From: a virus
Lineage: Duplodnaviria > Heunggongvirae > Uroviricota > Caudoviricetes
DNA: 22,290 nt
Direction: 5' to 3' (one strand)
Virus record (IMG/VR): IMGVR_UViG_2675903562_000009
Shown: in pieces, positions 1 through 18,746 of the stretch
Numbering within the stretch: position 1 is the first letter of the stretch
How the letters are laid out: each line of letters begins with the position of its first letter
Position numbers and translations under genes: made by a program
Notes under the pieces: generated by a model
The model's input: only the letters and a program-made list of their open reading frames with translations
The model's database searches: none
Told to the model about the DNA's origin: nothing

Positions 1-1980
1 TGAGATAATCGGGGCATCAGGATTTTTTCCCATGGTTTCGAGGTCGATCATTAGATGGCCACACGTCCTGCTGGTGGATGTGATTTCGTGATGACCGTTC
101 ACCTTAATTGAGTGATCTGCCGCCTCGCCAGTTGCATTATCGCTGGCGTGGTCCTGAGCGCTGCCAGCATTCTCCTTGTGTGGATGTTCAGCGCCTTCCA
201 TTTCCTCCGGATCGTTTTCCTGAACTTCAACCTGATTCTCTTCATCGAATGTTTCCTGGTATGTTGCGTCGCCCATCACCGCGCCACAATCAGGGCAGTT
301 GCCGCCACCGCTCTGACCACAGGCGGTGCAGGCTTTTTCCGGTTCCTGTTGCGCTACTGGTTCAGGTTGTTTCGTTTCTGGCTCGTTTTGTTGCGTATTT
401 GGGCTGTTTTGTTCCGCTTTCTGGTCGTTCTGTTCCGTTTCTTGCTGGTTCTGGTTCACAGAATCGCGGGTTTCAATCCCCTTCACCCATTTCGGATCAT
501 TCGGGTCGCTAATCCCTTCAATAAATTCACCACGTGATGCAGCAAGCAACTTATCGGCGTCAGGCTGGCTGATATTGGCTGCCTGCATAATTTTGTTTAC
601 TTCGTCAGCGGTAACTTTTACCGGTTCTGGCTGTGCGGTCGTGTCAGATGCACCAGTATTTTGTTGTGAACCTGAGCATGTACTGTTTTTGCGGGCGAAA
701 TATTCTTCTTTCGTGATTTCAGTAGCCCCGGCAGCCAGCGCCTTATCCAGACCAGAAAGTTTGTTTGCGCGACCGTATTTTTCGCCATCCTTGTCGGTGA
801 AGAGGAAGTAGAACGGCCCCTCACGCTCTACAGATGGTTCGACTTCCACTTTGCATTCGGTTTTTTCGTTGTCCGGAATTGCCGTTTCCACTGCATCAGT
901 TTCTGGTACTGGCGACGAGAGAGTATCAGTTGCGCTCTGATTTGTTCCTTCATCTTCAAACACGCCCTTTGTAGTCAGGTATTCAGTAATGTATTTGTTC
1001 AGTGCCACAGGGTCTTTGTGAATGTCGATCGGACGTTCACGAACAAGGCCAAAAATAGTCTGGCGGTCGTAGCGAAGGGTATCAGGCTGTTTGCGCATTG
1101 ATGCCGAGATACGCTTCCAGTCTTCGCGGTCGTTGTTGATAACTTCATTTTTTGCCCAGCGATGGATGCTGCCGTCAATGTTTCCGGCATCAATGTCACC
1201 AGGCCACAGAGCGTAGGCCAGTTCATCATCCAGTGTTTTCCATGTCTGCTTGTATTCGCGATGAGTGGCAGCAATGGCCGGGTTGATTTTTCCTGTTGAA
1301 TTTTCAGTGTTCTGTTGATTGGCTCTGGCGCGGGCGAGATCAACAACAGACGTGTATTTTCCGGTTTCCTTGCGTTCACCTTCGCGACGTTTTTTCCAGA
1401 TGCGCATCTCTGCCTGAATTTCGGGCCATTTGGCACCAGGCTTACATTTATGCTTAACCCACCCGATGGCATGCAGCTTAAGCTCCGGATACATGGCGTT
1501 AACTTCTGGCATTTTCATCAACGCTTCAACGATATGTCCGTCGAATGTTGCCATGTCTTCCTGCAACAATTCCTGCGCGCTAATCACCATATCAACGGTG
1601 ATATTTTCACATGTGTCGAACTTAACCATGACAGCGTTCTGTACTTCAGGGGCCAGCTTGTCAAAAGTGACGTTCATCGGATCTGATTCAGTCTCAACCG
1701 GGACAAAGGAAGCAGACTCCTCATCCCAGCGGTTTTCCTGCATATATTCGGTATCCCAGGAGTCGATAGCAGGGCGGGGTATACCGGGTTTATCCTCGCA
1801 AACAAGAAATTTATAAGCGCAGTCCTGAGCAGCCGGATAATGTTCCAGGAATTGCCAGTGAAATTTTGCGCGGGCGCGACGTTCATCACCAGCTTCAATG
1901 GCAGTGGCTACAGCGACTGCACCTTCTTCCTTTATTGCCTGTTCGTCCGGAATGGCGGCGCAAATAAAGACTTTACTCAT
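1..1980 (-). CDS. recE: RecE-family (exodeoxyribonuclease VIII-like) protein, 3' end beyond window start
   Basis: Minus-strand ORF from ATG at 1980-1978, hand-translated with no stop to position 1 (660 codons). It is absent from the ORF track, apparently because it has no in-window stop. The stretch KLLAASRGEFIEGISDPNDPKWVKGI...CPDCGAVMGDATYQETFDE...DPEEMEGAEHPH matches the central linker of E. coli RecE as I remember it; the N-terminal ~400 aa do not. Overlapping plus-strand ORFs 108-811 are antisense artefacts. Confidence 0.7.
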   Translation of the reverse strand, partial: MSKVFICAAIPDEQAIKEEGAVAVATAIEAGDERRARAKFHWQFLEHYPAAQDCAYKFLVCEDKPGIPRPAIDSWDTEYMQENRWDEESASFVPVETESDPMNVTFDKLAPEVQNAVMVKFDTCENITVDMVISAQELLQEDMATFDGHIVEALMKMPEVNAMYPELKLHAIGWVKHKCKPGAKWPEIQAEMRIWKKRREGERKETGKYTSVVDLARARANQQNTENSTGKINPAIAATHREYKQTWKTLDDELAYALWPGDIDAGNIDGSIHRWAKNEVINNDREDWKRISASMRKQPDTLRYDRQTIFGLVRERPIDIHKDPVALNKYITEYLTTKGVFEDEGTNQSATDTLSSPVPETDAVETAIPDNEKTECKVEVEPSVEREGPFYFLFTDKDGEKYGRANKLSGLDKALAAGATEITKEEYFARKNSTCSGSQQNTGASDTTAQPEPVKVTADEVNKIMQAANISQPDADKLLAASRGEFIEGISDPNDPKWVKGIETRDSVNQNQQETEQNDQKAEQNSPNTQQNEPETKQPEPVAQQEPEKACTACGQSGGGNCPDCGAVMGDATYQETFDEENQVEVQENDPEEMEGAEHPHKENAGSAQDHASDNATGEAADHSIKVNGHHEITSTSRTCGHLMIDLETMGKNPDAPIIS

Positions 1981-2060
1981 TTTGTTTTAACCTCATTACA
2001 GATTTAAGGATGAACAAATCCCTGCCATTGCTGGCATATAAAAATGAAACCGGATATTAA

Positions 2061-2264
2061 TTACGGTGCTGTTTTAAGTCCTGCCGGGATTTCGTTATTA
2101 TCCTGGTGAATAACTTTATCGACCGGATAACAGTTACCGGGAATTTTCTGCTCCACTGCGGCAACCATGCATTCTTTCATTGAGCCGTATACGCCAGTAA
2201 CCATGTCAACCGGTTCACCGGAAACAAGAAAAACCGTCAGAACAAGTGCAAATGTGATATTCAT
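2061..2264 (-). CDS. Small hypothetical early-left protein (67 aa) with hydrophobic N-terminus
   Basis: ORF-track ORF 2061..2318 trimmed to the internal ATG (MNITFALVLTVFLVSGEP...), which has an AAGGA Shine-Dalgarno about 9 nt upstream. Start overlaps the upstream gene in ATGA fashion. Confidence 0.5.
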   Translation of the reverse strand: MNITFALVLTVFLVSGEPVDMVTGVYGSMKECMVAAVEQKIPGNCYPVDKVIHQDNNEIPAGLKTAP

Positions 2265-2449
2265 TGCCAGTATCCTTTTTGCATCAGACGTAAACGGGCC
2301 AGCATCGAAACAATGCATATTTGATTTAATAACTCCCGTTCGTGTTTTCTCTTATTAATGGCATCTTCAGTAAATACTGGATTACTGATTTTGACACCAA
2401 TTTCAAAACAACCTTCAGACGTATTAACGTTTGGTAATAACGTTTTCAT
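2261..2449 (-). CDS. Small hypothetical protein (62 aa) in the kil position of the leftward operon
   Basis: ORF 2261..2548 trimmed to ATG at 2449 (MKTLLPNVNTSEGCFEIGVK...), preceded by a GAGGGTG SD. Position between the pL-proximal genes and recE corresponds to kil/racC-type genes; identity not established. Confidence 0.5.
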   Translation of the reverse strand: MKTLLPNVNTSEGCFEIGVKISNPVFTEDAINKRKHERELLNQICIVSMLARLRLMQKGYWQ

Positions 2450-3000
2450 TATCGCACCCTCAACAATGAATTTTGTGATGCGGTGCCTGGTGCCTCCAGG
2501 TGACGTTAACCAGTTAACAATTAACGCCGGATACAGAACCCCACCCATAACTTGGTTTTAACTGTTCCGCGTGCGCTTAGCCGCATTCACCGCATCACAA
2601 AATTCACTTTAAAAAGGACGGCAGAGCAGTCACGGAGTAAAACTGATACCGCCAAACGCCACCAGAAAATTGATAACAGAGGGCGTTGCAGCGGGGTTGT
2701 CACTTAAGCGCATGGTCAACCTGACAACCCGGTGTCTCAATGGGGGAGGAATAACCCCGCCATACTTACCGCCGCGCCATTTCGCGGAGTGCCACAACCG
2801 GAAGCGCACGGTCGACGAAAATTTAACGACAGGCTATCTATGAACCAACTACCTCGCCGTGCGCTTTCGCGTTATGCCCTGACTTTTCAGGAAAATGCCC
2901 TTTCAGTAAACTGTCAGTGCCGGATGCTCACCCGTGTCCGGCGCACGCACTCCACCTCACCCGTGGAGAACCCCTTAATTACCAACCCTCAGGAGGGTGA

Positions 3001-3223
3001 AATGACTAGTAAAAATGTAAATATCCAGTTTAACCACGATGTTTCTCCTGCTGGACTTGCGGATGATCTCACCGCTATAAAAACGGCAATTATGCTACTT
3101 GCTGCTAAGTTGCCTGCGTCATCAAAGCCAGCGGAAATTTGTGACTCATTGCGTAAGATGAATTCAACAAAATGCAATGAGATGGCATCACTTATTGAAA
3201 GTGCAATTGATTTTAATGATTAA
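3001..3223 (+). CDS. Hypothetical protein (73 aa) encoded opposite to the leftward operon
   Basis: ATG at 3001 preceded by a strong SD (GGAGGGTGAA). The long form of the track ORF (2732..3223) has an Arg/Pro-rich, non-protein-like N-terminal part and is not adopted. Confidence 0.45.
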
Positions 3224-3587
3224 TCGAAATTTCATGGCTAACTGTAACCCTCCCATCTGTGGCGGGATGGTTTAAATCGCTGGGATTAATGCCGCACTCA
3301 GTAAAATGGTTCTTAAGGGGTTCTATCCGAATCCCTTTCTTTTTCATTAACAAGCCAAACCCCTTATCAATGATATCCATTAATTCCAGGAAGTATTTTT
3401 CATGTAAATCCTGGCTATCAGAGAGCCGCTTCTCTTCGTACAGACCGATAAAGGCACGACGCACGTTACCGGATATAGTATCGATGGTTTCTTTTTCTAC
3501 GGTACTCAGGTCAAGAGTCGCCAGTTGGAAACGAACTATATTCGCTGCCATTTCCTGGAATTGCATTGGTAAATCTTTAAATTCCAT
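3213..3587 (-). CDS. Hypothetical early-left protein (124 aa)
   Basis: Track ORF with protein-like composition (E/K/D/L rich) and a GAGG SD upstream of the ATG at 3587; the overlapping plus-strand ORF 3259..3606 is S/R/F-rich and looks antisense. Confidence 0.55.
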   Translation of the reverse strand: MEFKDLPMQFQEMAANIVRFQLATLDLSTVEKETIDTISGNVRRAFIGLYEEKRLSDSQDLHEKYFLELMDIIDKGFGLLMKKKGIRIEPLKNHFTECGINPSDLNHPATDGRVTVSHEISINH

Positions 3588-3609
3588 TATTAGCCTCGTT
3601 GGTTAGCTA

Positions 3610-3828
3610 TTAACGTGGGTATGTAATCATTCTGGCAATGCTTAATGCCGCTGCTTTTTCCAGCCTGGTGATATCCTGCTCCAGAGCGGACAGATTTTCA
3701 GCCTGCTTAGCCCTGGCTTCATTGGCCCATTTCAGATCCTGCGCTGCATTAATTTTCTGGCGCATCCACTCATAAAGTTCATCATCGGTATAGTCTGGCG
3801 CGATGATGACGGGTTCTCGTTTCTGCAT
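3610..3828 (-). CDS. Hypothetical protein (72 aa), first gene downstream of the putative pL
   Basis: Track ORF; GAGGA SD about 6 nt upstream of the ATG at 3828; charged, helix-prone composition. Confidence 0.55.
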   Translation of the reverse strand: MQKREPVIIAPDYTDDELYEWMRQKINAAQDLKWANEARAKQAENLSALEQDITRLEKAAALSIARMITYPR

Positions 3829-4013
3829 ACTGATTCCTCGCGGTGCTGTTTCCCCTTAACGCCGGGGTGGCGGAACAAAAACCTGCTGCATAGTTATTAA
3901 AGTTGAACCCTGCCGTCATGTTCTTACGCCTCGGGCTGGCTACTTACCCCCTGACCACTGCCTGGTAACTCGAAGTATTGCCCTGCATTCTGTGGGGCGG
4001 GGTGGGTTGGTAT

Positions 4014-4110: not shown

Positions 4111-4785
4111 TCAGTCTAAGTATTGATGTATTTGTGAAACTTTACCTTTAATGGTGTAACCACCATTCAGTTCGATGGGTTTGTAAAGCGGATTCAGTGA
4201 CAACAGATAGATGTTTGGTCCGTCAATCGCAACTTTTTTTAGTGTTACGTTTGGCGTTCCTTCCAATTGGATTAAGATTATTTTTCCCACCAGTTCTCTA
4301 ATGTTACTTGAGCATGGTGTGATCAGCACGGTAGATCCGTCGGGGATGGTTGGGAGGCCGTTAGAGTTTGTCATCGCATCTCCCTCAACATGCAATAAAA
4401 AAGAGTTTTCAGCGGTTTTTGTCATGACATCAACCCAATTCTTAATACCAGGAATCTCGGTTACTGGACAACTCATATCCCAATAACCAGCCTGTTCCCA
4501 CGTTAAAACGGGCAACCGGGCGATGTTGTCACTAATGTAAAGGTACTGATTCAGACGCAGATCATCGGTTTTATCGTGACCGTCCTTTCCATAAAGAATC
4601 CATTCAGGAGATTTGGAAAGCAATTTTGACAGTAGATGCAAATTCTCACCGTCAGGTTTTGAAGAGCCATTTTCCCATTTTGTTACGGATACACGAGATA
4701 TGCCGATTGCTTTCGCAACCTGCTGTTGGGTTAATCCAACGTCTTTTCGACGATTCCGAATACGTTCGCTGATAGTGTTTTTCAT
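4111..4785 (-). CDS. cI: CI-type prophage repressor (XRE-family HTH N-terminal domain, S24/LexA-like C-terminal domain with Ala at the nucleophile position)
   Basis: HTH segment LTQQQVAKAIGISRVSVTKWENG; C-terminal domain has the LexA/CI-like VEGDAMT motif and a downstream LKK lysine. Start placed at ATG 4785 (MKNTISERIRN...), where the operator abuts the start codon with no SD (leaderless-like); the track ORF extends to a TTG at 4884, and 4827 is an alternative ATG. Confidence 0.85.
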   Translation of the reverse strand: MKNTISERIRNRRKDVGLTQQQVAKAIGISRVSVTKWENGSSKPDGENLHLLSKLLSKSPEWILYGKDGHDKTDDLRLNQYLYISDNIARLPVLTWEQAGYWDMSCPVTEIPGIKNWVDVMTKTAENSFLLHVEGDAMTNSNGLPTIPDGSTVLITPCSSNIRELVGKIILIQLEGTPNVTLKKVAIDGPNIYLLSLNPLYKPIELNGGYTIKGKVSQIHQYLD

Positions 4786-4860
4786 GTAACCAATGTTACT
4801 ACCAAGTGATGTTGCTATGGTTGACATTGTAATGTAACTATTGTTACCCTCCTGCTCGAA
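4786..4860. promoter_or_regulatory. OR-like divergent control region between cI and cro, with repeated GTAAC-N4-GTTAC operators
   Basis: GTAACCAATGTTAC at 4786-4799 and GTAACTATTGTTAC at 4834-4847, centres 48 bp apart, with a degenerate candidate (GTTGCTATGGTTGA) midway giving about 24-bp spacing. TTGACA hexamer at 4821-4826. Confidence 0.6.
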
Positions 4861-4876
4861 ATAACAGGAGAGTTTT

Positions 4877-5092
4877 ATGTTCAAAGATGATGTTCTGCGC
4901 TATTTCAAAAAAAAGCGACTAGTAGCTGAGGCTCTTGGAATTTCACATGTGGCTGTTGTGCGGTGGAAAGCAGTTATTCCCAAACTTCGCGCAATGGAAC
5001 TGGATGAAATTACTAACGGTGAATTGAAATACAACCCAGAACTTTACAAGAAGCAGGATAGCACCTCGAACGAAGGAAAGAATGATTCATGA
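4877..5092 (+). CDS. cro: Cro-type repressor (P22 Cro-like)
   Basis: 71-aa ORF with GGAGAG SD; MFKDDVLRYFKKKRLVAEALGISHVAVVRWKAVIP resembles P22 Cro as remembered; divergent from cI across the operator region. Confidence 0.8.
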   Translation: MFKDDVLRYFKKKRLVAEALGISHVAVVRWKAVIPKLRAMELDEITNGELKYNPELYKKQDSTSNEGKNDS

Positions 5093-5514
5093 AAATCAAG
5101 CATGAACACATCCGCATGGCGATGAATGCCTGGGCGCGTCCTGATGGCGAAAAAGTTCCAGCAGCTGGAATAACCCAGGCTTATTTTGAGTTGGGTATGA
5201 CGTTCCCAGAACTGTATGACGACAGCCATCCGGAAGCCCTGGCTCGTAATACCCAGAAAATTTTCCGCTGGGTAGAGAAAGACACCCCTGATGCAGTTGA
5301 AAAAATTCAGGCGTTGTTACCAGCGATCGAAAAGGCAATGCCACCTTTGCTGGTGGCCAGAATGCGCAGCCACAGTTCAGCTTATTTTCGGGAGCTGGTG
5401 GAGACGCGGGAACGACTGGTGAGAGACGCTGATGATTTTGTCGCAGTGGCGATCGCTGGTTTCAATCAGATGAATCGTGGTGGCCCGGCAGGAAATGCCT
5501 TGGTGATGCACTAA
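5089..5514 (+). CDS. YdaT-family protein (CII-like regulator, sometimes annotated as a toxin)
   Basis: 141-aa ORF overlapping the cro stop (ATGA), AAGGAAAG SD; the N-terminus MKIKHEHI matches what I recall of Rac YdaT; occupies the cII position. Confidence 0.65.
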   Translation: MKIKHEHIRMAMNAWARPDGEKVPAAGITQAYFELGMTFPELYDDSHPEALARNTQKIFRWVEKDTPDAVEKIQALLPAIEKAMPPLLVARMRSHSSAYFRELVETRERLVRDADDFVAVAIAGFNQMNRGGPAGNALVMH

Positions 5515-9480: not shown

Positions 9481-9691
9481 AAACGGTTTGCAGTGAAAGG
9501 GGAGTTAAGTAGAATTGCTGCGGGTGCTTGAGGCTATCTGCCTCAGGCATGAACACCAAAAGGCAGATAGAGAAAAGCCCCAGTTAACATTACGCGTCCT
9601 GCAAGACGCTTAACATTAATCTGAGGCTCAATCTATGTCTCACAAATGTAGGTTAGCCTCTTACGTGCCGAAAGGCAAGGAGAAGCAGGCT

Positions 9692-9847
9692 ATGAAGCAG
9701 CAAAAGGCGATGTTAATCGCCCTTATCGTCATCTGTTTAACCGTCATAGTGACGGCACTGGTAACGAGGAAAGACCTCTGCGAGGTACGAATCCGAACCG
9801 GCCAGACGGAGGTCGCTGTCTTCACAGCTTACGAACCTGAGGAGTAA
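9692..9847 (+). CDS. hok: Hok/Gef-family type I toxin (51 aa) with in-frame upstream extension from 9635
   Basis: MKQQKAMLIALIVICLTVIVTALVTRKDLCEVRIRTGQTEVAVFTAYEPEE is near-identical in pattern to Gef/HokC as remembered; AAGGAGAAG SD; structured leader upstream and a 3' hairpin (GCGAGGG...CCCTCGC at 9856-9877) typical of hok mRNAs. Confidence 0.8.
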   Translation: MKQQKAMLIALIVICLTVIVTALVTRKDLCEVRIRTGQTEVAVFTAYEPEE

Positions 9848-10861: not shown

Positions 10862-11134
10862 ATGGCGCACAAAAACAAATTTCACAATTCTGATACCGAC
10901 CTTGCCATCCGGCACGGGCGGCGTTCACACGCATTTAAAACCGACTGGTACCAACACCCACCATGTACTGAAGAACAGGCCGAATGGCTAATTCATAACT
11001 ACCGCAGGCGCGGATACGAGGTTAAGAAAGCCCTCAGCCTCGATTATCGTCACTGGATAATCTATGTCAGGCTCCCTTATTCCGAACGCCCACCGCGTCC
11101 GTCCCGCACATTCCAGCAACGCATCTGGAGGTAA
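10862..11134 (+). CDS. Hypothetical protein (90 aa)
   Basis: Track ORF 10781..11134 trimmed to ATG 10862, because the longer form would begin inside the terminator. Weak SD; its stop immediately precedes the SD and GTG start of the next gene. Confidence 0.4.
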   Translation: MAHKNKFHNSDTDLAIRHGRRSHAFKTDWYQHPPCTEEQAEWLIHNYRRRGYEVKKALSLDYRHWIIYVRLPYSERPPRPSRTFQQRIWR

Positions 11135-11135
11135 C

Positions 11136-12185
11136 GTGCGGGTATTACTTCGACCTGTTCCGGTACCGGAACTTGGGCTGGTGGTGCTAAAACCGGGCCG
11201 TGAATCCATGCAGGTATTTCATAACCCTCGAGTTCTGGTGGAGCCGGAACCGAAAAGCATGCATGGTCTGCCGTCCGGAGTCGTTCCTGCTGTTCGCCAG
11301 CCGCTGGCGGAGGATAAATCATTACTGCCATTTTTCAGCGATGAGCGGGTGATTCGTGCTGCTGGTGGTGCTGGTGCATTGTCTGACTGGCTGTTACGCC
11401 ACGTTAAATCCTGCCAGTGGCCTCATGGTGACTATCATCACAGTGAAACCGTTATTCACCGTTATGGTACTGGCGCAATGGTGTTGTGCTGGTACTGCGA
11501 CAACCAGCTGCGTGACCAGACTTCTGAATCACTCGGGCAGCTTGCTCACCAAAACCTGTCAGCATGGATGATTGATGTCATCCGCCACGCAATGAATGGC
11601 ACGCAGGAGCGGGAATTATCGCTGGCTGAATTATCCTGGTGGGCGGTCTGCAATCAGGTGGCGGACGCGCTACCAGAGGCAGCATTACGTCGTTCTCTGG
11701 GGTTACGTGCGGAAAAAATTCGCTCAGTATACCGCGAGAGCGACATCGTGCCGGGAGAGCAGACCGCCACCAGCATGCTGAAGCAGCGCACAAAAAATCT
11801 TGCGCCGCTGCCTCACGCCCACCAGCAACAGAACCCACCACAGGAAAAGACGGTGGTCAGCATTGCCGTTGATCCTGAGTCTCCGGAATCTTTCATGAAA
11901 CGACCTAAACGTCGCCGCTGGGTTAACGAGAAATACACACGCTGGGTGAAGACACAGCCGTGTGCGTGTTGTGGTAAGCCAGCCGACGATCCCCATCACC
12001 TGATTGGTCATGGTCAGGGCGGAATGGGGACAAAATCTCACGATATTTTCACGCTACCGCTGTGTCGGGGGCATCACAACGAGCTTCATGCGGATCCGCT
12101 GGCGTTCGAAGAAAAGCATGGTTCTCAGGTTGATTTAATTTTTCGTTTTCTTGATCACGCCTTTGCAACTGGCGTGCTTGGGTAA
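11136..12185 (+). CDS. DUF968-family protein with HNH-like Cys/His-rich C-terminus
   Basis: GTG start 3 nt after a GGAGGT SD and directly after the upstream stop; C-terminus PCACCGKPADDPHHLIGHGQGG...LPLCRGHHNELH. Confidence 0.7.
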   Translation: MRVLLRPVPVPELGLVVLKPGRESMQVFHNPRVLVEPEPKSMHGLPSGVVPAVRQPLAEDKSLLPFFSDERVIRAAGGAGALSDWLLRHVKSCQWPHGDYHHSETVIHRYGTGAMVLCWYCDNQLRDQTSESLGQLAHQNLSAWMIDVIRHAMNGTQERELSLAELSWWAVCNQVADALPEAALRRSLGLRAEKIRSVYRESDIVPGEQTATSMLKQRTKNLAPLPHAHQQQNPPQEKTVVSIAVDPESPESFMKRPKRRRWVNEKYTRWVKTQPCACCGKPADDPHHLIGHGQGGMGTKSHDIFTLPLCRGHHNELHADPLAFEEKHGSQVDLIFRFLDHAFATGVLG

Positions 12186-12197
12186 AAGAGGTGACTG

Positions 12198-12557
12198 ATG
12201 CTCATAGATTTGGTTTTACCTTACCCGCCGACGGTGAACACTTACTGGCGACGCCGTGGCAGCACATATTTTATCTCGGAGGAGGGAAAGCGTTATCGCC
12301 GGGCTGTGGCGCTTATTGTTCGCCAGCAGCGGCTGAAATTAAACCTGTCCGGAAGGCTGGCGATAAAGGTGATTGCAGAGCCACCGGATAAACGTCGTCG
12401 TGACCTGGACAATATCCTGAAAGCACCACTGGATGCACTGACACATGCGGGGTTGCTTATCGACGACGAGCAGTTTGATGAAATTAATATTGTGCGCGGT
12501 CAGCTTGTTCCTGGTGGGCGGTTGGGGATAAAAATCACAGAACTGGAGTGCGCATGA
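12198..12557 (+). CDS. rusA: RusA-family Holliday junction resolvase
   Basis: 119 aa; LPYPPTVNTYWRRRG N-terminus and the RRRDLDN...LIDDEQ acidic motifs characteristic of RusA. Confidence 0.85.
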   Translation: MLIDLVLPYPPTVNTYWRRRGSTYFISEEGKRYRRAVALIVRQQRLKLNLSGRLAIKVIAEPPDKRRRDLDNILKAPLDALTHAGLLIDDEQFDEINIVRGQLVPGGRLGIKITELECA

Positions 12558-13243
12558 ATAACCAGTATTTACAGTTTGTTCGTGAGCAACTCATGATTGC
12601 CACCGCCGATTTGAGTGGATCAACAAAAGGGCAGCTTGAAGCCTGGCAGGAGAATGCCATGTTCGATACAGGGCGTTACAGGCGAAAAAAAATCCGGTAC
12701 CGCGATGAAGTGACTGGAAAAATGATAACGCGGGATAATCCACCAATCCCGGGAAAGCAATCGCTGGCGAAAGGTTCATCAATTGCCCTGGTCAGTCCGG
12801 TTGAGTTTTCGACATCATCATGGCGACGCGCCGTTCTGTCTCTTGAAGAGCATCAGAAGGCGTGGGTGCTGTGGGTATACAGTGAAAATCCGAGTTGGGA
12901 TTATCAGGTGGTCATTGCGAAATGGGCGTGGGATAAGTTTCAGGTGCATTTTGGCACCAGAAAAATTACAGGGAAAACGCTTGAGCGTCTGAAGAAATTA
13001 ATCTGGCTGGCGGCGCAGGATGTCAGGGGGAGGATTACTGGGCGTGACGTCTACCAGCGACAGGAACTTGCCAGACTGTGTGGAGTTAAGCCTGACAACT
13101 GGAGCCATAATTATGCGAACTACTGGCGTGAGATGTGCGACATTTTTAAGAAACTCGATACAGAATCCTTGATTTGCACCGTGAAAATGAGATCGCAACA
13201 AAAAGCGACCTTTTCACGACGAGATATTGCAAAAGTCAATTAA
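12554..13243 (+). CDS. Candidate late-gene antiterminator (Q-like), assigned by position
   Basis: 229-aa ORF (ATG overlapping the rusA stop, GGAG SD); last gene of the nin-like region, immediately followed by a promoter-like element and a strong terminator, as for lambda Q/pR'/tR' and Qin ydfU-quuQ. No motif-level confirmation. Confidence 0.5.
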   Translation: MNNQYLQFVREQLMIATADLSGSTKGQLEAWQENAMFDTGRYRRKKIRYRDEVTGKMITRDNPPIPGKQSLAKGSSIALVSPVEFSTSSWRRAVLSLEEHQKAWVLWVYSENPSWDYQVVIAKWAWDKFQVHFGTRKITGKTLERLKKLIWLAAQDVRGRITGRDVYQRQELARLCGVKPDNWSHNYANYWREMCDIFKKLDTESLICTVKMRSQQKATFSRRDIAKVN

Positions 13244-13255
13244 ATCGCATACATT
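13227..13255 (+). promoter_or_regulatory. Candidate late promoter (pR'-like)
   Basis: TTGCAA (13227-13232), 17 bp, TACATT (13250-13255); would give a roughly 50-nt transcript ending at the terminator at 13291-13315. Confidence 0.3.
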
Positions 13256-13290
13256 TTATGTAAATGTGATATTTTGCCGTATAGTGTGTA

Positions 13291-13315
13291 AACCCGCTTA
13301 AATGCGGGTTTTTTG
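13291..13315 (+). terminator. Rho-independent terminator (tR'-like)
   Basis: AACCCGC-TTAAAT-GCGGGTT followed by TTTTTT. Confidence 0.75.
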
Positions 13316-13387
13316 CTTAACTCTGTGGACCTTTTTATCTGTAGTTGTAAGATATGGATATTCTTACAATTTAGGTCGGTGAGCTTA

Positions 13388-14152
13388 ATGGAAGAACAGC
13401 ACGGTAATTACTTTATAAAACGAATTCAGTTGATTGGAAGGGGTGCATTTGGCTTTGTTGAACACGTTAAGGTTTACAACCTCAACAAGGGTGAATGTGG
13501 GGATTATGCTAGAAAGGTTTTAGCCCCCGAAAAACCAGAGCTTTTGGCGCAAATAGAGCAGTTTAGAAGGCGTTTTAAAAGGGAGGTCGTGTATCAATCA
13601 CATTGCGTACATAGCAATATTGTTCCTATTTATTTGTGCGATTTGTTTGCCGAGAATCCATGGTTCATTATGGATAAAGCAGAATGTGATCTTGAGCACG
13701 AAATAACGAACAACCTTCTTACAACAGATCAAAAAATTTCAATAGTGAAAATGGTATTAGATGGTGTAGCTCACATCCATGCGAAAGGCTATTTACACAG
13801 AGATATAAAACCATTTAATGTCTTGCGATTTAGCGACGGAACATACAAGGTGTCTGATTTTGGTCTGGTAAAAGATACAAATCCCGAAGGGGATACCACT
13901 AAATTGACCGAGATCGGTACCCGTATGGGAAGTACAAGATATATGGCTCCCGAGATTTTATATAATGCCGAGTATTCAGTTAAGACTGATGTTTATGCGG
14001 TGGGGCGGTTAATTGAGGACTTAAATTTAGATGATAAAAAAATAAAGCCTATCATAGCGAAGTGTACCAGGATGGATAAAGATGATAGATATCAGACAAT
14101 AGATGATGTGGCGTTTGATTTTGTGCATTCTTTTTTAAGGAGTGAGTCATGA
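13388..14152 (+). CDS. Hanks-type (eukaryotic-like) Ser/Thr protein kinase
   Basis: 254 aa from ATG 13388. Gly-rich loop GRGAFGFV, lysine in YARKVL, catalytic loop HRDIKPFNVL, DFG (VSDFGLV) and APE (YMAPEIL) motifs all present; region is visibly AT-rich relative to neighbours (not computed). Confidence 0.85.
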   Translation: MEEQHGNYFIKRIQLIGRGAFGFVEHVKVYNLNKGECGDYARKVLAPEKPELLAQIEQFRRRFKREVVYQSHCVHSNIVPIYLCDLFAENPWFIMDKAECDLEHEITNNLLTTDQKISIVKMVLDGVAHIHAKGYLHRDIKPFNVLRFSDGTYKVSDFGLVKDTNPEGDTTKLTEIGTRMGSTRYMAPEILYNAEYSVKTDVYAVGRLIEDLNLDDKKIKPIIAKCTRMDKDDRYQTIDDVAFDFVHSFLRSES

Positions 14153-14892
14153 TTCAGCTGATAGCGACTTCATCATTCTCGTATCCAAAAGAACCAGGTA
14201 GGGTCAACGAAGATTCATTGCTTCCTCCCAAAATTGTAGGGGATGGCATCTTATTTGCCGTAGCTGATGGTGTAGGTTCATACACTGGTGCCAGTCAGGC
14301 TTCATCAATGGCAATTGCTGAACTTTCAGCATTGACAAGCTTATCTTTTGACACAGTTCCGGATGTATTTGATGAAGTTAAGCGAAAGGTTATGTCGTTA
14401 GCTGATGTTAATGATGAGTTCGATAAAGCTGCTACTACACTTACGTTTTGTTATGTTTGTGATAGCGGAATTATTATTGGTCATATTGGTGATTGTCGTT
14501 TGTATTGCATTGGAGAGAAGAAAGCATACCAATTGACGAAGGACGATACCAGGCATCAGATGCTAATTGATCAGAATATTTTTAAACCCAGAGATTTGAA
14601 GGATAAACCGGGCAAAAATATCTTAACGACGGCTATAGCCTCAAATGTTGATATGGAATACGACTGTGATTTTATCACATGGAAAGATTTACCTAGTATT
14701 AACGGGGTATATCATCTGTGTATCATGTCTGATGGGGTTCATAACGTTTGGGAAAAACGCCCCAGATTTACATCAAATACGATGAGTAATAGTCAGAAGT
14801 TTTCTAATGGCATTTTGCGTCGTATAGAGAGAGCCGGACCTGATGATGACTTTTCTTTAGTAAGTATAATGGTGCGTGTGACGTCAGATTAG
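14149..14892 (+). CDS. PP2C-family Ser/Thr protein phosphatase
   Basis: 247 aa; start overlaps the kinase stop (ATGA) with AAGGAG SD; metal-binding motifs VNEDS, AVADGVGS, GDCR and MSDGV typical of bacterial PP2C phosphatases. Confidence 0.85.
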   Translation: MIQLIATSSFSYPKEPGRVNEDSLLPPKIVGDGILFAVADGVGSYTGASQASSMAIAELSALTSLSFDTVPDVFDEVKRKVMSLADVNDEFDKAATTLTFCYVCDSGIIIGHIGDCRLYCIGEKKAYQLTKDDTRHQMLIDQNIFKPRDLKDKPGKNILTTAIASNVDMEYDCDFITWKDLPSINGVYHLCIMSDGVHNVWEKRPRFTSNTMSNSQKFSNGILRRIERAGPDDDFSLVSIMVRVTSD

Positions 14893-14967
14893 TTGTATAA
14901 ACTCAGTAGGGAATGCTAATTTCACATACAACATAGTTAAAGAAAACTTAATTTTAATGTAAAAAGG

Positions 14968-14996
14968 CTGCCCTCAGGCGGTCTTTTTATGCTCGA
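14968..14996 (+). terminator. Probable intrinsic terminator after the kinase-phosphatase operon
   Basis: Imperfect hairpin GGCTGCC-CTCA-GGCGGTC (one G-U pair, one mismatch) followed by TTTTTAT. Confidence 0.4.
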
Positions 14997-15110
14997 AAAT
15001 TGATGCAGTACGTTAAACGCGCTGGTGGTTGCGAATACCGGTCTTTCAGCTTGCTGGCTTTTTAGACAAGAGTTATTGGTATGTCACGTTAACCAGAAAA
15101 GGGAAAAAGA

Positions 15111-15309
15111 CATGCTAAAACAGCAGGATATGACCGAAACCGCCAGAGTGGTGTTTAATGAATTAAGCGTCACCGAACCGGCGACCGTCGGGGAAATTGC
15201 GCAGAATACTTACCTTTCACGCGAACGCTGCCAGTTAATCCTGACCCAGCTTGTTATGGCGGGTCTGGCAGATTATCAGTTCGGTTGTTACAGACGCCTT
15301 CTGCAGTGA
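15111..15309 (+). CDS. Small putative winged-helix DNA-binding protein (66 aa)
   Basis: Track ORF 15025..15309 trimmed to ATG 15111 (MLKQQDMTETARVVFNELSVTEPATVGEIAQNTYLSRERCQLILTQLVMAGLADY); lies upstream of the methyltransferase. Confidence 0.55.
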
Positions 15310-15459
15310 AGGCTTTTTAATTTGTGGTAATGGGCGGCTGGTGGGTGTTAGCGGCACCTGCCAGCCATCTGCTCATGCGTTGGGGTCACAAGCAAACCTC
15401 AGGCCCATCTGCTTTGCGCAAAAGCAGTATGAGCCTATCAGAGAAGTGCTTATTGATCT

Positions 15460-16509
15460 ATGACTAATACTGTAAAAATATCCAGTTGTGAGTTAATCAA
15501 CGCTGATTGCCTGAAATTTATCCAGACCTTACCGGAAAACTCTGTCGATCTGATAGTCACAGACCCGCCATACTTTAAAGTGAAGCCCGAGGGCTGGGAT
15601 AACCAGTGGGAGGGCGACGATGATTACCTGAAATGGCTGGACCAGTGTCTGGCGCAGTTCTGGCGGGTACTGAAGCCTGCCGGAAGTCTTTACCTGTTCT
15701 GTGGTCATCGCCTGGCATCTGACACCGAAATCATGATGCGTGAGCGCTTTAATGTGCTGAACCACATTATCTGGGCGAAGCCGTCCGGACGCTGGAACGG
15801 GTGCAATAAGGAAAGTCTGCGGGCGTATTTTCCGGCAACAGAGCGCATTCTGTTTGCAGAACATTATCAGGGACCGTATCGCCCGAAAGATGATGGCTAT
15901 GTGGCACAGGGGCGCGAGCTAAAACAGCACGTCATGGCCCCGCTGATTTCTTACTTTCGTGATGCGCGTAAATCACTGGGAATAACGTCAAAACAGATAG
16001 CGGAAGCCACCGGAAAGAAAAACATGGCTTCGCACTGGTTTGGTACCAGTCAGTGGCAGTTACCGAACGAGGGTGATTACAACAAATTGCAGGCGTTGTT
16101 TGCGCGTGTTGCGGCAGAAAAACATCAGCGCGGGGAACTGGAAAAGCCACACCACCAGCTGGTCAGCACATACAGTGAGCTGAACCGGCAGTACACGGAA
16201 CTGCTGAGTGAATATAAAAATTTGCGGCGGTATTTCGGTGTGACGGCGCAGGTTCCGTACACCGATGTCTGGACGCATAAACCGGTGCAGTACTATCCAG
16301 GAAAACATCCGTGCGAAAAACCGGCAGAAATGCTGCAGCAGATAATCAACGCGAGCAGTCGTCCGGGAGACCTGGTTGCAGATTTTTTTATGGGTTCAGG
16401 TTCAACGGTAAAAGCGGCGATGGCACTGGGGCGTTGTGCGATTGGTGTTGAGCTGGAGACAGGACGTTTTGAACAGACAGTCAGGGAAGTTCAGGATTTA
16501 ATCGTTTGA
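15460..16509 (+). CDS. Orphan DNA methyltransferase (N6-adenine/N4-cytosine class, beta-type motif order)
   Basis: 349 aa; motif IV DPPY (VTDPPYF) near the N-terminus and motif I FFMGSGST near the C-terminus; overall architecture like YhdJ-type enzymes. No restriction endonuclease gene is adjacent. Confidence 0.9.
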   Translation: MTNTVKISSCELINADCLKFIQTLPENSVDLIVTDPPYFKVKPEGWDNQWEGDDDYLKWLDQCLAQFWRVLKPAGSLYLFCGHRLASDTEIMMRERFNVLNHIIWAKPSGRWNGCNKESLRAYFPATERILFAEHYQGPYRPKDDGYVAQGRELKQHVMAPLISYFRDARKSLGITSKQIAEATGKKNMASHWFGTSQWQLPNEGDYNKLQALFARVAAEKHQRGELEKPHHQLVSTYSELNRQYTELLSEYKNLRRYFGVTAQVPYTDVWTHKPVQYYPGKHPCEKPAEMLQQIINASSRPGDLVADFFMGSGSTVKAAMALGRCAIGVELETGRFEQTVREVQDLIV

Positions 16510-16558
16510 AACGGATGAGATTGCAGAATTAATTACGCACCATTATTATTCTGCTCCC

Positions 16559-16634
16559 GGCCCTTTAGCTCAGTGGTGAGAGCGAGCGACTCATAATCGC
16601 CAGGTCGCTGGTTCAAATCCAGCAAGGGCCACCA
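16559..16634 (+). tRNA. tRNA with CAU anticodon; closely resembles E. coli tRNA-Ile2 (ileX-type, lysidine-dependent), Met not excluded
   Basis: 76 nt with perfect 7-bp acceptor stem (GGCCCTT/AAGGGCC), D-arm GCTCAGTGGTGAGAGC, anticodon loop CTCATAA, T-loop TTCAAAT and encoded CCA. Confidence 0.85.
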
Positions 16635-16635
16635 A

Positions 16636-16712
16636 CCGTCACCAGTTCATCAGGAAAGAGCGTCAACCCTTTAAGTTGAGTGTGCGAGGTTCGAGTCCTC
16701 GGTGGCGGGCCA
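16636..16712 (+). tRNA. Non-canonical tRNA-like gene (anticodon loop CCTTTAA, nominal UUU) or tRNA pseudogene
   Basis: Acceptor stem CCGTCAC/GTGGCGG (one G-U), T-arm CGAGG-TTCGAGT-CCTCG and encoded CCA, but C at positions 8 and 33 and an atypical D-arm. Begins 1 nt after the preceding tRNA. Confidence 0.45.
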
Positions 16713-16714
16713 GT

Positions 16715-16790
<76 letters not shown>

Positions 16791-16793
16791 TAT

Positions 16794-16868
<75 letters not shown>

Positions 16869-17142
16869 GCATTTGAAATAAGCCTTATTGTATTGCAGCA
16901 CTGGCGTATTTTTTATTACGTGGGAGCAGGTTGTTTTAAGAGACATTCTGTTCTCTGGCTATGATTTGAGGCCAGGTTAGCCTCAGTGCTGATTTTTTTT
17001 ACGACAGCAGAATGGTGCATTATCGGTGGAGATTTTGTATTTCCTGGCAGGGTCGGTAATGCATCATTCTGATGTTGTAAGCATCGCTCAGAATAACGTT
17101 GAGATTAATCGCGTACTAAGCAAAACTTGGAAATACATCCTT

Positions 17143-17168
17143 AACCGCCGCACCAGGCGGTTTTTTTT
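17143..17168 (+). terminator. Rho-independent terminator
   Basis: AACCGCC-GCACCA-GGCGGTT followed by eight T. Confidence 0.75.
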
Positions 17169-17183
17169 ATTCATTTTTTTCAT

Positions 17184-17206
17184 GGCTCGCTACGGCGGGC
17201 CTTTTT
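17184..17206 (+). terminator. Rho-independent terminator (second of a stack)
   Basis: GGCTCGC-TACG-GCGGGCC followed by TTTTT. Confidence 0.55.
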
Positions 17207-17292
17207 CATATCCTCGCCACACCCGGCGCATATCACATCAAATAACGCCGCGCAAAAGGCATCTGCGGGCGCCTTTGACGGGGTGTTTTTAC

Positions 17293-17314
17293 GGGCCGCT
17301 GGTGGCCCTTTTTT
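17293..17314 (+). terminator. Rho-independent terminator (third of a stack), 20 nt upstream of the next start codon
   Basis: GGGCC-GCTGGT-GGCCC followed by TTTTTT. Confidence 0.65.
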
Positions 17315-17333
17315 ATTTACAGGAGAAAAACGT

Positions 17334-18746
17334 ATGTCTGAACCCTTATCTGGTTCCGGCACGGCTGCGGCGCTCGGTGGGGCGACGGTATTCGGGCTGT
17401 TTACCGGAACGGATTTCGGGATTGTGTTTGGTGCGTTCGCCGGGGCGTTATTTGTGGCAACGATGCCGCAGGCGCTTTCAATCTGGCGTGTGGTGGCGCA
17501 TTTTTTGGTGTCGTTTATCGTCGGCGTGCTGGGGGCGCGCGTGCTGTCAGCCTGGATTGCATCAAAAACAGGGTATGACGGTACATCGGCAGATGCGCTG
17601 TGTGCGGTGCTGGTATCGGTGGTGTCGGTGAAGATTGCGGATATCAGGCAGGTTGAAACCACAGCACGCTATCTTGGCACGGCGCTGTACTGGATAGCCG
17701 CCAGTATCAATATCAGGCCGGGCCATAATTATTATTTTTACGTTCGCAGTGTGAACACCGTTGGCAAATCGGCATTCGTGGAGGCTGTTGGTCAGCCGAG
17801 TGATGACGCATCCGGCTATCTGGATTTTTTCAAAGGCGAGATAGGGAAAACCCATCTGGCTCAGGAGCTGTGGACGCAGATTGATAACGGTCAGCTTGCG
17901 CCTGACCTGGCTGAAATCAGGACATCCATTACGGATGTCAGCAATGAAATCACACAGACCGTCAATAAGAAACTGGAAGACCAGAGTGCAGCGATCCAGC
18001 AGATACAGAAGGTTCAGGTTGATACAAATAATAACCTGAACAGCATGTGGGCTGTGAAGCTGCAGCAGATGCAGGACGGACGCCTTTATATCGCGGGTAT
18101 CGGTGCCGGTATTGAGAATACGCCAGCAGGCATGCAGAGTCAGGTGCTGCTGGCGGCAGACAGGATTGCGATGATTAATCCTGCGAATGGCAACACAAAG
18201 CCGATGTTTGTTGGTCAGGGCGATCAGATATTCATGAACGAAGTGTTCCTGAAATATCTGACGGCTCCCACCATTACCAGCGGCGGTAATCCTCCGGCAT
18301 TTTCCCTGACACCGGACGGAAAGCTGACCGCTAAAAATGCGGATATCAGTGGCAGTGTGAATGCGAACTCCGGGACGCTCAACAACGTCACGATTAACGA
18401 GAACTGCCGGGTTCTGGGAAAACTGTCCGCGAACCAGATTGAAGGCGATCTCGTTAAAACAGTGGGCAAAGCTTTCCCCCGGGACTCCCGTGCACCGGAG
18501 CGGTGGCCATCAGGGACCATTACCGTCAGGGTTTATGACGATCAGCCGTTTGACCGGCAAATTGTTATTCCGGCGGTGGCATTCAGTGGCGCTAAGCATG
18601 AGAGAGAGCATACTGATATTTACTCCTCATGCCGTCTGATAGTGCGGAAAAACGGTGCTGAAATTTATAACCGTACCGCGCTGGATAATACGCTGATTTA
18701 CAGTGGCGTTCCCGCCGTCACATGCCGGGACCATCACCGTGTATGA
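17334..18746 (+). CDS. Chimeric ORF: about 100-aa hydrophobic N-terminus joined to a C-terminal fragment resembling tail-tip host-specificity protein J; likely a deletion remnant
   Basis: ATG 17334 with AGGAGA SD. First ~100 aa contain three hydrophobic stretches. From about [42 protein letters not shown] onward the sequence parallels the C-terminal third of lambda J as remembered ([42 protein letters not shown]). Confidence 0.6.

Follow-up and report, generated by a model that had tools for sequence, protein, structure and literature searches.

Canonical RecE, the exonuclease VIII of the Rac prophage of Escherichia coli K-12, has two domains that are recognised by Pfam. When the K-12 protein was searched, PF06630, the Enterobacterial ExoVIII N-terminal domain, was matched at aa 2-178 (E 6e-98) and DUF3799, the PD-(D/E)XK domain, at aa 615-850 (E 4e-28). 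Lambdoid phages also have Rec modules with DnaQ-like 3'-5' nucleases, according to PMC12315714, in which a Chi-rich 'Tritos' class is described that has just a nuclease and lacks both a SAP and an anti-RecBCD function. Nucleases of a similar kind are also found on their own, with EcD, a stand-alone E. coli homologue of the phage enzyme DexA, able to degrade T4 DNA and protect cells (PMC12153337).

The window analysed here is a stretch of 22,290 nucleotides (IMG/VR record IMGVR_UViG_2675903562_000009), and the gene at its left edge is probably best explained overall as an intact ydfE-type mosaic, in which a RecE scaffold is joined to a DEDDh 3'-5' exonuclease in a cassette without recT. The gene lies on the minus strand, starting with an ATG at 1980-1978 that has a Shine-Dalgarno GAGG 10 nt upstream (1991-1994, minus strand, read directly from the sequence). 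Translation from 1980 to 1 gives 660 codons without a stop, the frame remaining open through window position 1 with ...HLMIDLETMGKNPDAPIIS / ...TSRTCGHLMIDLETMGKNPDAPIIS as the last residues at the window edge. An earlier, sequence-only reading had held that the gene is truncated by the window, which is borne out, the window holding codons 1-660 of 823 (1-1980) and the final 163 lying past the left edge. The sequence beyond was seen in two complete E. coli genomes, TW10690 and E1316, both of which are 100% identical to window 1-4000 and encode an identical 823-aa product (WP_001763171.1, annotated "3'-5' exonuclease"). The C-terminal 163 aa are read from these other genomes, identical to the window over 1-4000, because the whole window is intact in none of the complete genomes searched, with E1316 being 100% identical over 80% of it and E1739 99.5% identical over 93%.

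The same reading had noticed a DnaQ-like exonuclease motif at the window edge and had suggested that the gene is a RecE variant with a different nuclease module, the first of which is confirmed and the second supported by the complete gene. Within the window is the first strand of a DEDDh (Rv2179c/DexA-like) domain (aa 642-660, 1-57, on the minus strand as are all features of the gene given below), with only the Exo I motif, D646-x-E648, inside it at window 43-45 and 37-39, and Exo II (D746) and Exo III (H796-x4-D801) lying beyond. The likeness inside the window is 19 residues long and gives a Pfam Rv2179c-like match of E=0.0098 and 16.1 bits, which is below the cut-off of 27, thus this fragment is not significant alone. 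In the complete gene the match to PF16473 spans aa 642-813 and the full length of the model (positions 2-177 of 177), with E=9.4e-68 and 227.8 bits where 27 are required, and the DEDD identity can be taken as decisive once the remainder of the gene is read from the genomes that are identical over window 1-4000. The domain search that had been proposed, RecE PD-(D/E)XK versus DnaQ/RNase T, gave a full DEDDh domain, with DUF3799 and PF06630 both absent.

The residues D646, E648, D746, H796 and D801 align with D7, E9, D119, H186 and D191 of DexA, and all five are invariant among 33 unique domain sequences. The DEDD domain is under purifying selection, with a median dN/dS of 0.14 over 248 pairs; values for the folded domains of the protein are 0.09-0.23, and the linker at 0.46 is the most relaxed segment. 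A profile search of the PDB found T4 DexA (8kel, E 2.5e-15) as the closest solved relative, with no chain except DexA at E<=0.1 and no exoribonuclease chain at E<=1. The structure model is an AF2 model of P0121, a homologue that is 95% identical over its full length, rather than of the window protein itself, and this model has the DnaQ fold, its best Foldseek match being DexA (E 4e-8, TM 0.61-0.69), with RNase T, Orn and REXO2 next, all at a probability of 1.00. The C-terminal domain is predicted to be an active Mg2+-dependent and probably dimeric 3'-5' exonuclease, its substrate and dimeric state being taken from relatives that are 23-38% identical. DNA appears more likely than RNA as the substrate, because the domain is most closely related, among characterised proteins, to T4 DexA and E. 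coli EcD.

The remainder of the protein is made up of several distinct parts. The N-terminal module is of the YdfE type (aa 1-257, 1210-1980) and has two subdomains, one alpha/beta (aa 1-100) and the other helical (aa 105-216). The module has 95% identity to ydfE, the Qin prophage pseudogene of K-12 of which the gene is an intact version, and is unlike the RecE N-terminus (PF06630), no likeness to which was found in aa 1-257. A helical core domain (aa 245-345, about RecE 278-390; 946-1248), supported by BLASTP, phmmer and pLDDT of 91-98, is common to the whole RecE/YdfE/Gifsy-RecE family, its phmmer matches being 40 representative proteins with DEDD, PD-(D/E)XK or no known nuclease; for ten family members without a recognisable C-terminal nuclease a local copy of Pfam gave zero matches. 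A small domain of a beta-hairpin and helix (aa 385-435, 676-828, AF2 pLDDT 93-97) falls in a gap of the BLASTP alignment with Rac RecE, where it is absent, and is present in other YdfE-type relatives. The motif LLAASRGEFIEGISDPNDPKWVKGI (aa 478-502, 475-549) is near-identical to RecE 458-482, and the acidic Q/E/N-rich linker (aa 496-636, 73-495) has a net charge of -22, is ~85% identical to RecE 476-591 by BLASTP and is predicted to be disordered on the basis of pLDDT of 29-42 and composition. Within the linker is a Cys4 motif, CTACGQSGGGNCPDC (CxxC-x7-CxxC, aa 551-565, 286-330), which is also found in Rac RecE at 517-531 and is putatively zinc binding, the region being of low confidence in the structure model.

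The RecE-family central core domain and acidic linker are present in the window gene, as BLASTP aligns aa 262-625 with RecE 278-591 (E 3e-63), with identity of ~85% from about aa 470 to 625, the last similarity at aa 625 / RecE 591 and none past RecE residue 591. The same limit is found in a MAFFT alignment of TW10690 DNA with K-12 Rac, where the ~90% nucleotide identity to Rac recE in the linker ends abruptly at about aa 625, a mosaic joint (100-115) just ahead of the nuclease domain. The sequence-only reading had also described a non-RecE N-terminal 400 aa. The N-terminus is indeed unlike RecE, but RecE homology begins at ~aa 262 (RecE 278) and is strong only over ~470-625, thus the non-RecE N-terminus is about 260 aa, together with an insert at ~aa 346-450 that is absent in Rac RecE. 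An end-to-end alignment with canonical RecE, named there as the result that would speak against a variant, was not seen by BLASTP. Canonical RecE is ruled out as an identity for the gene: the 823-aa protein has no Pfam match to DUF3799 (PD-(D/E)XK) or to PF06630, the NCBIfam ExoVIII equivalog NF007259 gives 276.7 bits against a cut-off of 1269 and covers aa 235-625 only (model positions 258-602), and the BLASTP alignment is only partial. The 823-aa product is a domain mosaic of a YdfE-type N-terminal module, the RecE-family core, the small extra domain and a RecE-type linker (aa 470-636), with the DEDDh domain occupying the exact place of the PD-(D/E)XK 5'-3' nuclease of RecE.

The swap exceeds the nuclease domain, with PD-(D/E)XK versions followed by recT, as in Rac, Gifsy-1, HK225 and mEp237, and DEDDh versions followed by xis-int, as in TW10690, E1316, mEp460_ev081 and vB_EcoS-689R5. 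A survey was made of 80 IMG/VR viral contigs with RecE-like scaffolds, taken from the core-domain alignment and confined to RecE-N-type scaffolds. Across these loci, which are phylogenetically redundant and fall in 10 clusters, recT was found with none of the 43 DEDD-type genes and with 27 of the 28 PD-(D/E)XK-type genes, thus the nuclease and recT swap as one cassette. Where at least 1.5 kb is available downstream of a DEDD gene an integrase is found 265-368 bp after it (24/24), and a single scaffold cluster at 90% identity contains 35 DEDD and 4 PD-(D/E)XK genes. That the same scaffold carries either PD-(D/E)XK with recT or DEDDh without it, even at >90% identity, provides a clean natural experiment, and this either/or pattern is a hint that the N-terminal two-thirds of RecE, which has been little studied, may be a nuclease-independent delivery or tethering module.

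The edge gene closes the early operon dicF-dicB-ydfD, which runs leftward in a lambdoid prophage that has inserted next to ompW. The upstream genes of the operon (2061-2667, minus strand) are the DicF sRNA (2616-2667, Rfam 70.8 bits), dicB (2261-2449, Pfam DicB and RefSeq annotation) and a DUF1482/ydfD-like gene (2061-2264, Pfam DUF1482 and RefSeq annotation), and the gene order matches dicF-dicB-ydfD-ydfE of K-12 Qin, with the YdfE-family N-terminal module again found downstream of dicF-dicB-ydfD. A recT-like annealase, whose presence downstream the earlier reading had thought worth checking, does not follow, as xis (excisionase), int (integrase) and ompW come directly after the gene in TW10690 and E1316. 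Neither an annealase nor Gam was found in the early-left operon of the window. Further along, the Q/tRNA region is followed directly by tail-fibre genes, lysis and head genes being absent from the interval.

The protein family is real, very common in E. coli and already catalogued and annotated. Of 5426 complete E. coli genomes, 4047 (about 75%) have the DEDD domain, some in up to 7 copies, and the same full-length gene is carried by the isolated phages mEp460_ev081, Evi, Tritos and HannyBb. A search of the literature found no biochemical or genetic test of the 823-aa protein, and no functional work on either ydfE or phage Rv2179c-like domains. Many phage records label the gene "exodeoxyribonuclease VIII/RecE", and some RefSeq records have '3'-5' exoribonuclease domain-containing protein'. 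The RefSeq annotation "3'-5' exonuclease" is the correct name and the RecE label a common mislabel, since the nuclease of RecE and a RecT partner are both missing and the predicted polarity is opposite.

The window contains 11 Chi sites where shuffled sequences would give 0.76, and 8 of the 11 are on the + strand. The E. coli genome has on average about one Chi per 4.6 kb. By that average about 4.8 sites would be expected (Poisson P about 0.01), thus the excess is modest. Chi density was rejected as a discriminator between the two types of locus, the values per 10 kb of 3.1 for DEDD and 1.8 for PD-(D/E)XK loci being only modestly different and drawn from redundant loci; the PD-(D/E)XK loci are Chi-biased too, so a Chi bias is not peculiar to the DEDD type.

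With a polarity opposite to that of RecE and no annealase partner, the DEDDh protein presumably cannot work as part of a resection-annealing pair of the RecET type. The role preferred here, tentatively, is that during lytic growth the exonuclease, tethered by the RecE-like scaffold, would trim phage DNA at its 3' ends or 3' overhangs. The beneficiary would be a phage that lacks Gam and an annealase, is rich in Chi sites of the right orientation and depends on the host RecBCD-RecA. It is also conceivable, if doubtful, that the gene forms a one-gene 'Rec module', in which blunting or trimming of 3' ends would let host RecBCD load and reach correctly oriented Chi, as an alternative to RecE and RecT. 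If so, the conserved scaffold, made up of the YdfE/RecE core and the acidic linker with its Cys4 motif, would bring either nuclease to one and the same partner or DNA structure. Counting against a recombination role, 3'-5' DnaQ-like exonucleases are stated in PMC12315714 usually to inhibit homologous recombination and not to promote it. The gene may bear on recombination of lambdoid phages without Gam or an annealase, or on prophage-encoded defence.

A role in defence is rather improbable. The protein would in that case be an anti-phage superinfection-exclusion nuclease of the HREX/EcD kind, which would selectively digest the modified (5hmC-type) DNA of incoming T-even phages and so protect the lysogen. 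DicB, encoded in the same operon, is reported to be protective against some phages, which was counted in favour. The EcD precedent (PMC12153337) points the same way, as does the 38% identity of an EcD-like 189-aa protein to aa 644-816 (E 4e-35), this protein having been recovered with the primer sequence from that paper and having A78 as the paper describes. However, W152 and D169 of DexA, which are necessary for 5hmC recognition (PMC12153337), correspond to Y766, a position that is variable (Y/C/V/T/H/W) in fused relatives, and to K778. The gene is also deep in the repressor-controlled early-left operon by xis-int, not in the position of a moron expressed in the lysogen, and its fusion to a RecE-type scaffold that alternates with the recE-nuclease and recT cassette points to DNA recombination or replication. 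PADLOC gave zero matches with the full-length protein, using a library that predates HREX.

That the domain is instead an RNA-directed 3'-5' exoribonuclease or nanoRNase, which might process or degrade DicF or host transcripts, is very unlikely. The best Pfam family is named for the Mycobacterium tuberculosis exoribonuclease Rv2179c, RNase T, Orn and REXO2 are among the structural neighbours, and the exoribonuclease name is used on some RefSeq records. Against this, the DNases DexA and EcD are the nearest by both sequence and fold, and as DexA was the sole solved chain at E<=0.1 no exoribonuclease structure is a close sequence relative. The fold leaves the substrate undecided, since RNase T is itself able to trim the 3' ends of DNA, and the domain sits in the DNA-exonuclease slot of the RecE scaffold. 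It is hardly credible that the gene is what remains of a cryptic prophage in decay, a non-functional product of accidental fusion whose activity is not selected. In favour of this, the K-12 pseudogene ydfE is interrupted by IS2, truncations or internal deletions are found in many database entries (P0002, P0012, P0088) and the window prophage itself appears deleted. Against it, the 823-codon frame is intact, the dN/dS values are low and the catalytic residues invariant, and the full-length gene is present in isolated phages and in multiple copies across E. coli genomes.

The preferred reading, a RecE-type scaffold with a DEDDh exonuclease that would trim phage DNA, can be set beside the systems already described. 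With Rac RecE (b1350) the protein shares the helical core (aa 262-345 to RecE 278-360) and the acidic linker (aa 470-625 to RecE 450-591, about 85% amino acid and about 90% nucleotide identity), the LLAASRGEF...KGI and Cys4 motifs being common to both linkers, and the gene has the same place late in the early-left operon ahead of xis-int. It differs in having neither PF06630 nor DUF3799, in a predicted polarity of 3'-5' where that of RecE is 5'-3', and in that no recT, ralR or rcbA follows it. The DEDDh fold and the five aligned catalytic residues are shared with DexA of T4/T2 (exonuclease A; PDB 8KEL/8KEN) at about 23% identity, whereas DexA is a stand-alone protein of 227 aa with extra loops and has W152 and D169 (5hmC DNA) where the window protein has Y and K. 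EcD/'HREX' (PMC12153337) is of the same DEDDh subfamily, the EcD-like protein being 38% identical over the whole domain; EcD is, however, stand-alone and about 190 aa, whereas the window domain forms the C-terminal part of a scaffold protein of 823 aa. At the 5hmC-recognition positions, Y766 and K778 here, W and E are found in the EcD-like protein. The Rv2179c-like family (PF16473), with its full-length model match, takes its name from a small RNase of mycobacteria. Between the Tritos gene and window 1-1980 the nucleotide identity is 91%, and the nuclease-only module of that class (PMC12315714) has, like the window, a nuclease, no annealase, no anti-RecBCD protein and a richness in Chi. Lastly, YdfE of K-12 Qin (b1577) is 95% identical over aa 1-257 and has the same upstream dicF, dicB and ydfD, but the K-12 gene is interrupted by IS2E past codon 257 and lacks the whole of the remainder, whereas the gene of the window is intact.

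The exonuclease gene is a single open frame of 660 codons at the left edge of the window (1-1980, minus strand, by translation), starting at an ATG (1980-1978, minus strand) with GAGG 10 nt upstream and passing the edge with the reading ...TSRTCGHLMIDLETMGKNPDAPIIS. Window 1-4000 has a 100% identical match in the chromosomes of two E. coli strains, TW10690 and E1316, and in both the gene is completed at 823 codons, with an identical product (WP_001763171.1) labelled "3'-5' exonuclease" in RefSeq. The whole 22-kb window is intact in no complete genome, the best being E1316 with 100% identity across 80%, so the last 163 codons are taken from near relatives and not from the true source. The sequence-only reading had asked whether a recT-like annealase gene follows; what lies directly 3' of the gene in TW10690 and E1316 is instead an excisionase, an integrase and the chromosomal ompW.

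That reading had also seen a DnaQ-like motif at the window edge and proposed a RecE variant with a different nuclease module, whilst judging this unresolvable within the window. The caution was justified, as the likeness in the fragment extends over 19 residues (Pfam Rv2179c-like, E 0.0098, 16.1 bits where the cut-off is 27), and the motif itself is borne out by the full-length protein, for which the Pfam matches are one to the complete Rv2179c-like 3'-5' exonuclease domain (aa 642-813, E 9.4e-68), a weak one to RNase_T and no others across the 823 aa. K-12 RecE, in contrast, has PF06630 at aa 2-178 and the PD-(D/E)XK domain DUF3799 at aa 615-850, both of which the window protein lacks. The match to the NCBIfam ExoVIII equivalog is limited to aa 235-625 (277 bits, well short of the cut-off of 1269), BLASTP aligns aa 262-625 with RecE 278-591 at 40% identity overall and ~85% from aa 470, and DNA identity to Rac recE is ~90% until it ends abruptly at ~aa 625 (window ~106), immediately before the DEDDh nuclease domain, which supports the proposed RecE variant.

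The N-terminus has another affinity, with aa 1-257 being 95% identical to ydfE, a pseudogene of the K-12 Qin prophage that is interrupted by IS2E and lies behind dicF-dicB-ydfD. Upstream of the exonuclease gene, all on the minus strand, are a DUF1482/ydfD-like gene (2061-2264), dicB (2261-2449) and the DicF sRNA (2616-2667), the same gene order as in the dicBF operon of K-12 Qin, where the ydfE pseudogene comes last. As both the N-terminus and the upstream genes agree, the window carries ydfE in intact form. AlphaFold models predict a folded region of two subdomains (aa 1-216), a folded helical core (aa 245-345), a small folded domain (aa 385-435) and the DEDD domain (aa 640-820); the N-terminal 345 aa gave no informative match among solved structures. 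The acidic linker predicted to be disordered (aa 500-636) includes, as in RecE, a putative zinc-binding CxxC-x7-CxxC motif (window 286-330, minus strand; K-12 RecE aa 517-531), where AF2 confidence is low and which, among 51 representative relatives of at least 600 aa, is present in the closest one only.

The nearest solved protein to the nuclease domain is T4 DexA (sequence profile E 2.5e-15, Foldseek E 4e-8), followed by RNase T, oligoribonuclease and REXO2, all of which are dimeric DEDDh enzymes. In the alignment D646, E648, D746, H796 and D801 correspond to the catalytic D7, E9, D119, H186 and D191 of DexA, and all five are invariant across 33 unique homologous domain sequences. The C-terminal domain is predicted to be an active 3'-5' exonuclease, with DNA a more likely substrate than RNA. 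One family member (P0229, 752 aa) is altered at two catalytic residues, having D-L-K for the D-x-E of Exo I and SFANV for the SFDNV of Exo II in its DEDD domain (aa 567-752), which is probably inactive on an otherwise intact scaffold. Three others (P0002, P0012, P0088) have internal deletions, so that the YdfE N-terminus runs into an incomplete DEDD domain without Exo I, and many further database entries are fragments ending at contig edges, consistent with a multi-copy gene breaking assemblies.

The family is combinatorial. An exhaustive search with aa 1-343 gave 178 representative clusters, the long members of which were classified by phmmer: around a shared core domain the N-terminus is of YdfE or RecE (PF06630) type, the C-terminus is DEDDh, PD-(D/E)XK or without a recognisable nuclease, and every combination is found. 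Phage vB_EcoS-689R5, for example, joins a RecE-type N-terminus to a DEDD domain 98.9% identical to that of the window protein. Ten proteins of 683-798 aa with a YdfE-type N-terminus (P0126, P0130, P0131, P0139, P0145, P0153, P0158, P0180, P0204, P0263) have a C-terminal ~300 aa that matches neither nuclease type nor any Pfam family, and may be the 'RecE-2' proteins without nuclease domain mentioned in PMC12315714. The PD-(D/E)XK members Rac, Gifsy-1, HK225 and mEp237 have recT next downstream, whereas DEDD members have xis-int. In a set of 80 IMG/VR loci retrieved using the RecE-type core domain, recT is present in 27 of 28 PD-(D/E)XK loci and 0 of 43 DEDD loci, and wherever a DEDD locus has 1.5 kb or more of downstream sequence (24 loci) an integrase follows the gene after 265-368 bp, counts that overstate independent events as the loci form 10 clusters. 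One 90%-identity scaffold cluster contains both types (35 DEDD, 4 PD-(D/E)XK). What is exchanged is therefore either a nuclease domain together with recT or a DEDD domain by itself.

Chi (GCTGGTGG) occurs 11 times in the window against 0.76 expected from dinucleotide shuffles, with eight sites on the plus strand (70-77, within the exonuclease gene, 5349-5356, 5394-5401, 11177-11184, 11361-11368, 15021-15028, 15337-15344 and 17298-17305) and three on the minus strand (11767-11774, 11819-11826 and 16152-16159). The excess is modest against the E. coli average, with ~4.8 expected (P ~0.01). The plus strand is the direction of cro and the replication genes, and it is on this strand that Chi works in lambda. 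In the IMG/VR loci around related genes Chi shows a strong bias to the strand opposite the exonuclease gene (126:10 in DEDD, 53:1 in PD-(D/E)XK). The early-left operon of the window contains no recognisable annealase or Gam. The best-supported mechanism, at somewhat under an even chance, is that the protein would act as a scaffold-tethered DNase trimming 3' ends during lytic growth of a phage dependent on host RecBCD-RecA.

An alternative is an HREX-type defence nuclease, as the DEDD domain has 38% identity to an EcD-like protein. Against this, DexA W152 and D169, needed for 5hmC recognition, are Y766 and K778 here, residue 766 is variable among relatives, the gene lies within a repressor-controlled operon and PADLOC gave no match. 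A role as an RNase is suggested only by the Pfam family name, and a pseudogene reading is contradicted by purifying selection on the DEDD domain (median dN/dS 0.14) and by carriage in viable phages.

Elsewhere in the window, the immunity region (4111-5092), with a CI-like repressor of HTH and S24-peptidase type (4111-4884, minus strand) and a P22-Cro-like gene (4877-5092, plus strand), differs from that of TW10690 between identical flanks. A sok antitoxin RNA (9522-9697, plus strand, Rfam 121.6 bits) implies a hok/sok-type toxin-antitoxin locus, and its TW10690 counterpart is annotated hokD. The late-regulatory region has a 373-aa HNH-endonuclease-family protein (PHROG 96; 11064-12185, plus strand), annotated DUF968 in related genomes, with four Chi sites within or beside its gene. 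Beyond are a Q-like antiterminator (12548-13243), a Ser/Thr kinase (13313-14152), a DNA methyltransferase (15460-16509), three tRNAs (16559-16865) and a tail-fibre gene (18703-21480); no lysis, terminase or head genes were recognised between tRNAs and tail fibre, and the prophage looks deleted across 12548-21480.

The gene is an ordinary object, a very widespread prophage gene for which a correct annotation and a catalogued architecture already exist. Of 5426 complete E. coli genomes, 4047 contain the DEDD-domain DNA (at least 80% coverage), in up to 7 copies, the protein matches PHROG 2082 ("exonuclease") end to end, and the N-terminal parts of relatives carry the precomputed Pfam labels PF27430 and PF27432. 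The study that solved the DexA structure (PMC12153337, NAR 2025) also reports digestion of 5hmC DNA and protection against T4 by EcD, a stand-alone homologue from E. coli. Five IMG/VR loci (L006, L011, L021, L024, L027) carry a stand-alone 189-aa DEDDh protein (MIDTETLGNGPDAAI...) whose start corresponds to the published forward primer for EcD and which shares the Ala described at position 78 of EcD; because it sits on viral contigs, this 'bacterial' nuclease of defence may in fact be carried by prophages. The polarity predicted for the window protein is opposite to that of RecE. DnaQ-like 3'-5' nucleases are described in Rec modules of lambdoid phages, among which the Chi-rich "Tritos" class has a nuclease without annealase or anti-RecBCD function (PMC12315714), and the gene of phage Tritos is 91% identical in nucleotides to the window exonuclease gene.
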